A DNA stretch of 64,000 bases from Escherichia coli (GTDB lineage Bacteria; Pseudomonadota; Gammaproteobacteria; Enterobacterales; Enterobacteriaceae), in NCBI RefSeq assembly GCF_003334335.1, contig NZ_QOWQ01000011.1; one strand, written 5' to 3'. The notes under the pieces were generated by a model that worked only from the letters and a program-made list of their open reading frames with translations, did not search any database and had not been told where the DNA came from. Positions 52,337 to 52,356 of the stretch are shown here, piece by piece. Position numbers and translations under genes: made by a program. Every line of letters starts with the position of its first letter. The stretch's first letter is position 1.

Positions 52337-52356
52337 TTGTGTACATTTGTACACAA
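52337..52356. promoter_or_regulatory. Near-perfect palindrome in the ybjJ/rcdA divergent region; candidate TetR-type (RcdA) operator
   Basis: ttgtgtaca-tt-tgtacacaa: 9-bp perfect inverted repeat with 2-bp spacer, 21 nt upstream of the rcdA ATG. Confidence 0.5.

Follow-up and report, generated by a model that had tools for sequence, protein, structure and literature searches.

A palindrome between ybjJ and rcdA of Escherichia coli K-12 is the published RcdA box and probably lies on two overlapping divergent promoters

The ybjJ-rcdA locus lies in the 64-kb stretch of DNA that was analyzed in this study (the window), where the two genes diverge from an intergenic region of 83 bp. On the plus strand, rcdA (ybjK; 52377-52913) encodes a TetR-family regulator of 178 aa, identified by its open reading frame, annotation, Pfam domains, and PDB match. 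On the minus strand, ybjJ (51085-52293; open reading frame and annotation) encodes an MFS transporter of 402 aa and is the first gene of the ybjJI operon, as examined by Northern blotting and lacZ fusion (PMC3535384). The second gene of this operon, ybjI (50270-51085, minus strand; annotation), has a start that overlaps the ybjJ stop codon; the assignment to the operon follows the same paper (PMC3535384). The rcdA product shows the layout of the TetR family, an N-terminal TetR-type helix-turn-helix (HTH) followed by a C-terminal ligand/dimerization domain, with the Pfam domains TetR_N at residues 13-59 (2e-07) and TetR_C_31 at residues 86-176 (3e-09). It also matches the RcdA crystal structures 5x5i, 7acl, 7acm, and 7aco over its full length (residues 1-178, E ~5e-116); none of these four PDB entries carries a DNA-complex label.

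The window is E. coli K-12. A 2-kb query around ybjJ-rcdA was 100% identical to E. coli K-12 MG1655, and this 2-kb stretch is present in 5,422 of 5,426 complete E. coli genomes. In the coordinates of NC_000913.3, rcdA occupies 887423-887959 and ybjJ 886131-887339; a window position equals the genome position minus 835046. Over the surrounding 8 kb, the window and NC_000913.3 differ at 1 of 8001 bases: window position 50001 is A where MG1655 has C (885047), which places Ser62 instead of Ala62 in YbjH. The window is thus no exact copy of the MG1655 reference. Two further features of the neighborhood were noted. The sRNA gene rybB (52933-53011, minus strand; annotation) lies 20 nt downstream of the rcdA stop codon in convergent orientation, and IS1 or IS2 interrupts rcdA or ybjJ in the E. 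coli genomes NZ_CM169477.1, NZ_CP103570.1, and NZ_CP195093.1, which include natural and laboratory cases.

The 83-bp spacer contains the palindrome TTGTGTACATTTGTACACAA at 52337-52356; with its surroundings, the sequence of the window here is ggTTGTGTACATTTGTACACAAtt. It consists of two fully complementary 9-nt arms separated by 2 nt, and the repeat search found a single inverted repeat at this site, with arms at 52337-52345 and 52348-52356 and 100% complementarity. The original prediction had described this 9-bp inverted repeat with its 2-bp spacer under the title "near-perfect"; the sequence and the repeat search bear out the repeat, and its arms are in fact perfect. The predicted distances also agree with both start codons: the rcdA ATG (52377) follows the final base of the palindrome by 21 nt, and the ybjJ ATG (52293, minus strand) precedes the first by 44 nt.

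A perfect 9-bp inverted repeat is not in itself rare or remarkable in the window, which contains 14 of them with spacers of up to 10 nt; shuffled sequence gives approximately 2.75. The majority of the remaining repeats are G+C-rich and resemble terminator hairpins with loops of 3-7 nt, unlike the A+T-rich ybjJ-rcdA palindrome with its 2-nt center. What sets this palindrome apart from chance is its location in an 83-bp divergent intergenic region and, above all, its conservation. The 20-mer is unique in the 64-kb window even when up to three mismatches are allowed (0.01 expected). The published RcdA-box unit TTGTnnACA matches three times within it, at 52337-52345 (plus strand), 52347-52355 (plus strand), and 52348-52356 (minus strand), and nowhere else in the 64-kb window, where 7.5 matches are expected by chance; this absence may reflect avoidance of the motif or mere composition. 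Separately, two more A+T-rich perfect palindromes with short centers were observed, one at 14133-14150 (ATGGTTATGCATAACCAT, 18 nt without a spacer) and one at 49813-49831 (TTATCTTTT-T-AAAAGATAA). In contrast to the other 11 inverted repeats, these two do not resemble terminator hairpins.

The palindrome is the published RcdA box of the E. coli K-12 ybjJ-rcdA spacer. In the work of Shimada et al. (2012, MicrobiologyOpen; PMC3535384), genomic SELEX with purified His-tagged RcdA, then named YbjK, repeatedly recovered the ybjJ-rcdA spacer; among the gel-shift probes this spacer had the highest RcdA-binding activity, and one clear DNase I protection appeared on it at low RcdA. The authors derived the unit TTGTnnACA and wrote the palindromic box of the spacer as TTGTGTACAttTGTACACAA. 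The feature at 52337-52356 (no strand) is thus delimited by its sequence, a perfect 9-2-9 repeat TTGTGTACA-TT-TGTACACAA, together with the published SELEX, EMSA, and DNase I footprint (PMC3535384). In an rcdA mutant, ybjJI mRNA on Northern blots and ybjJ-lacZ expression both increased, and RcdA is therefore a repressor of ybjJI; later papers retain this target (PMC5934670; PMC6134199). The published EMSA gave more than 10 complexes (PMC3535384), and binding of RcdA is therefore not a simple one-dimer event. The locus has also appeared in work on ionic liquids, which takes rcdA to be the regulator of ybjJ. Loss of rcdA function, including IS insertions selected in laboratory evolution, confers an ionic-liquid tolerance attributed to the MFS pump gene ybjJ (PMC5691611), and [C2mim]Cl induces ybjJ 3-4 fold (PMC4077768).

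In outline, this is what had been predicted, namely control of both rcdA and the divergent MFS transporter gene ybjJ through an RcdA box; SELEX, gel shift, footprint, and fusions had already established it (PMC3535384). The binding of purified RcdA to the spacer, proposed as a footprint or EMSA check, was on record there as well. Reporter fusions to both genes, with and without rcdA, had been proposed too; in the published data ybjJ rises in the rcdA mutant and the rcdA fusion also responds, but rcdA-lacZ falls (PMC3535384). Two inconsistencies within that paper were seen. Its running text appears to place the 20-nt palindrome in the paragraph on tfaX-appY, whereas the legend of Figure 1 says ybjJ-rcdA, and the clone numbers 22 and 15 are swapped between the text/table and the legend. 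A location at appY was rejected: no match to the 20-nt palindrome, with up to three mismatches allowed, was found in the 12 kb around appY (MG1655 578000-590000). The Figure 1 legend (ybjJ-rcdA) is therefore correct.

To follow the site across species, 14 RcdA orthologs were aligned, and the alignment was used to retrieve 80 Enterobacteriaceae loci, each from the genome of a different species. RcdA identity to the E. coli protein ranged from 67 to 98% over these loci. The rcdA gene is divergent to a ybjJ ortholog in 79 of the 80; in the last one the sequence ends too near rcdA for the upstream gene to be seen. At every one of the 80 loci the best match to the palindrome falls in the ybjJ-rcdA spacer. 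Its 15-nt core GTGTACATTTGTACA (52339-52353, no strand), which comprises TGTACA-TT-TGTACA and the preceding G, is the same in 79 of 80 loci, with one occurrence in each, while at other spacer positions the majority base has a frequency of 32-75%. The outer positions of the palindrome vary (T52337 in 67% of loci; at 52354, C in 42% and T in 58%), and the perfect symmetry of the E. coli site is therefore not general. Variation also occurs within the species: the exact 28-30 nt around the site are found in 4,249 of 5,426 complete E. coli genomes and approximately a fifth differ, for example strains JJ2434 and EC08, which carry a variant with GA-CTGTGTACA in the left arm. On the protein side, residues 29-49 or thereabouts, the predicted HTH of RcdA, show little or no variation among orthologs of 68-99% identity. 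This near-invariant segment matches the invariant operator core and lends indirect support to the binding of RcdA there. One of the loci (L070, CACSKA010000002.1) is labelled Chryseobacterium sp. 18061, and yet its ybjJ-rcdA region is typical of Enterobacteriaceae, has the exact operator, and is nearly identical to that of Citrobacter sp. 18056 (L063); it is probably a mislabelled or mixed assembly.

The position of the palindrome relative to rcdA transcription was obtained from published start sites. An extract of the Cappable-seq supplement of Ettwiller et al. 2016 (PMC4782308) gives a plus-strand start site at U00096.2 886624. Conversion from U00096.2 to the window used an offset of 777, calibrated on the 77 start sites of this extract within the window. 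With this offset, +1 is a purine at 17 of 22 strong sites, compared with 8 and 13 for the neighboring offsets, and pyrimidine-purine steps are also most frequent. The converted rcdA start site is 52355 (plus strand), an A preceded by C and the 19th base of the palindrome; according to the same extract its signal in wild-type cells is weak (relative score 2.86; PMC4782308). With the start at 52355, the operator extends from -18 to +2 in the rcdA promoter. Our own sigma-70-like ranking placed a candidate -10 element, TACATT (52342-52347, plus strand), inside the operator. It ends 7 nt before the mapped start and is invariant in 79 loci, and the mapped start and the candidate -10 thus both fall within the operator. 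The matching candidate -35, AAGACA (52319-52324, plus strand), lies 17 bp upstream of TACATT in the top-ranked pair; conservation of its GACA portion is 97-100%. The candidate -10 hexamer ends with the TT that separates the arms of the palindrome, and this sharing may be the reason why the non-symmetric center is invariant.

On the other strand, the top-ranked pair points to a ybjJ promoter that uses the same bases. The candidate -35 is TGTACA (52348-52353, minus strand), the invariant core of the right half-site, and it is spaced 17 bp from a candidate extended -10, TGcTAATGT (52325-52333, minus strand; hexamer TAATGT at 52330-52325). The latter falls within another conserved block, GACAACAyTAgCAAg (52321-52335), on the left side of the palindrome. 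Conservation within this candidate is complete (100%) for the TG and for three hexamer bases (T, A, and the final T), and variation is confined to hexamer position 3 and the free n of TGn. The best pairs on both strands thus use operator bases, and the operator is predicted from sequence to overlap the ybjJ promoter. A mapped minus-strand start of ybjJ has no entry in the Romero 2014 or ROSE supplements. The standard promoter scan gave no site in the ybjJ-rcdA spacer, since both candidate promoters fall below its 9-of-12 threshold; it reported a weaker promoter-like minus-strand site inside rcdA (52441-52413). Use of that site would mean that the operator works as a roadblock and not by occlusion.

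The arrangement on the two sides of the operator differs among the 80 loci. The palindrome always lies approximately 45 nt from the ybjJ ATG. Between the palindrome and the rcdA start, unrelated insertions of approximately 35-100 nt occur in Salmonella (L021, L022), the Klebsiella oxytoca group (L024, L030, L035), Raoultella, and Enterobacter sp. (L047, L056, L060, and L074 for the last two), and also at L054 and L055. In these lineages rcdA must have either a long leader or a new promoter. Salmonella has lost the GAC of the proposed rcdA -35 and retained the ybjJ -10. The constant ybjJ distance, the kept ybjJ -10, the insertions on the rcdA side, and the lost rcdA -35 together argue that control of ybjJ is the universally conserved function of the site. 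In Salmonella, rcdA is often annotated as 206-210 aa, probably owing to an over-extended start.

On this evidence, the palindrome is very probably a high-affinity RcdA operator placed on two overlapping back-to-back promoters, through which RcdA represses ybjJI and also sets the transcription of rcdA. In the proposed mechanism, an RcdA dimer would occupy two TTGTGTACA half-sites with 11 bp between their centers, the spacing expected when a single TetR-type dimer contacts successive major grooves. Further RcdA may load cooperatively after this first dimer, as the published ladder of complexes suggests. The operator would lie over the -10 and start of rcdA (-18 to +2) and over the -35 and spacer of the predicted ybjJ promoter. 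Bound RcdA would then exclude RNA polymerase from the ybjJ promoter, presumably by steric occlusion, and keep the MFS transporter operon ybjJI off. Loss of RcdA, or presumably binding of a ligand, would derepress ybjJI. The transcription of rcdA would be set through the same operator.

The sign of this last effect is where geometry and published data part. An operator over the -10 and +1 of rcdA predicts autorepression, but a single-copy rcdA-lacZ fusion dropped markedly in the rcdA mutant, which the authors read as positive autoregulation (PMC3535384). This discrepancy could come from effects of the rcdA deletion that are indirect, from another promoter of rcdA, or from some unusual interplay of the overlapping promoters. 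The analogy to TetR regulators from which the original prediction had started held for the repressed divergent transporter and not for autorepression.

The same RcdA operator could accordingly be a classic TetR-type autorepressor site at rcdA, the published positive autoregulation being indirect or an artefact of the fusion or strain. We regard this as a real possibility that nonetheless falls short of being probable. The start at 52355, as given in the Cappable-seq extract, which puts the operator at -18 to +2 with TACATT inside, agrees with it, and so does the weak wild-type signal of that start site. The TetR/tetO and EilR/eilO (PMC6127294) paradigms, in which both divergent genes are repressed, also point in this direction. 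Against it stand the rcdA-lacZ fusion, which is the only direct test, and the high RcdA levels reported in the wild type (PMC3535384); an additional rcdA promoter is possible as well. TF-titration library data were also consulted for the sign of rcdA autoregulation, and that paper mentions RcdA for foci only.

A further idea is that one operator carries two mutually exclusive back-to-back promoters, the TGTACA half-sites doubling as part of the rcdA -10 and as the ybjJ -35, so that RcdA partitions RNA polymerase between them, or else that the published sign of autoregulation is wrong. This is unlikely. If it were true, partitioning of RNA polymerase might explain how an operator at -18 to +2 can go together with the positive autoregulation that has been reported, and RcdA would not be a simple repressor here.

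Readings that dispense with RcdA fare far worse. The palindrome might function in a transcript, as an RNA hairpin (a stabilizer, attenuator, or terminator), and not as DNA to which a protein binds; as RNA it does fold into an 8-bp stem with a 4-nt loop and 4 extra flanking pairs (-12.7 kcal/mol, z = -5.6). However, the rcdA start taken from the Cappable-seq extract is the 19th base of the palindrome, hence the rcdA mRNA would lack it, and the predicted ybjJ start lies downstream of it on the other strand. No T run follows the palindrome and the terminator scan was negative there, while the DNase I footprint places protein on the DNA (PMC3535384). The hairpin or terminator reading, extremely improbable in our judgment, was rejected on the position of the start site and the missing T run. 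That the palindrome arose by chance or belongs to a regulator other than RcdA is scarcely credible and for practical purposes excluded: perfect 9-bp inverted repeats do occur in shuffled sequence of this size, but the near-invariant core amid variable intergenic bases, its place beside rcdA at all loci, and the recovery by SELEX and footprint with purified RcdA (PMC3535384) all speak for the conserved RcdA site.

The RcdA operator resembles TetR/tetO in that a dimer of the TetR family acts on a palindromic operator that overlaps promoters in a short divergent spacer and represses an adjacent MFS transporter gene. The tet system has two operators, and TetR represses both divergent genes. In contrast, only one site, of 20 bp, is present in the ybjJ-rcdA spacer, and RcdA is reported to act positively on its own promoter; moreover, unlike TetR, RcdA binds approximately 40 other sites cooperatively (PMC6134199). 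Another relevant case is EilR/eilO of Enterobacter lignolyticus (Jungle Express, PMC6127294), where a TetR-family repressor is divergent from an MFS pump for ionic-liquid tolerance. The eilO palindrome likewise has a 2-bp center and is embedded in both promoters, but it differs from the RcdA operator in being AAAGTTGGACA-CG-TGTCCAACTTT, an 11-2-11 repeat that is present twice (PMC6127294). EilR is a distant relative of RcdA (E = 1.5e-4 to 5vl9). With a different operator sequence and distantly related proteins, the view of EilR/eilO as the same system was rejected; the two are analogous, not orthologous.

In sum, the palindrome, RcdA, and its targets are already known. They were published in 2012, and the present result is a rediscovery at the same genome position, with the same 20-nt sequence, regulator, and target genes. 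The RcdA box, the protein, and the targets are also recorded in regulatory databases, and RcdA feeds into biofilm formation (csgD), hibernation (rsd, rmf), and biguanide responses. Nothing essential distinguishes the palindrome described here from the RcdA box of Shimada et al. (PMC3535384). What is added is the cross-species footprint, the position of the rcdA start inside the operator, and the candidate promoter hexamers; the residual value of the site lies in this footprint, in that start site, and in the sign of rcdA autoregulation. The practical relevance lies in engineered E. coli, where ionic-liquid tolerance rests on the ybjJ-rcdA switch.
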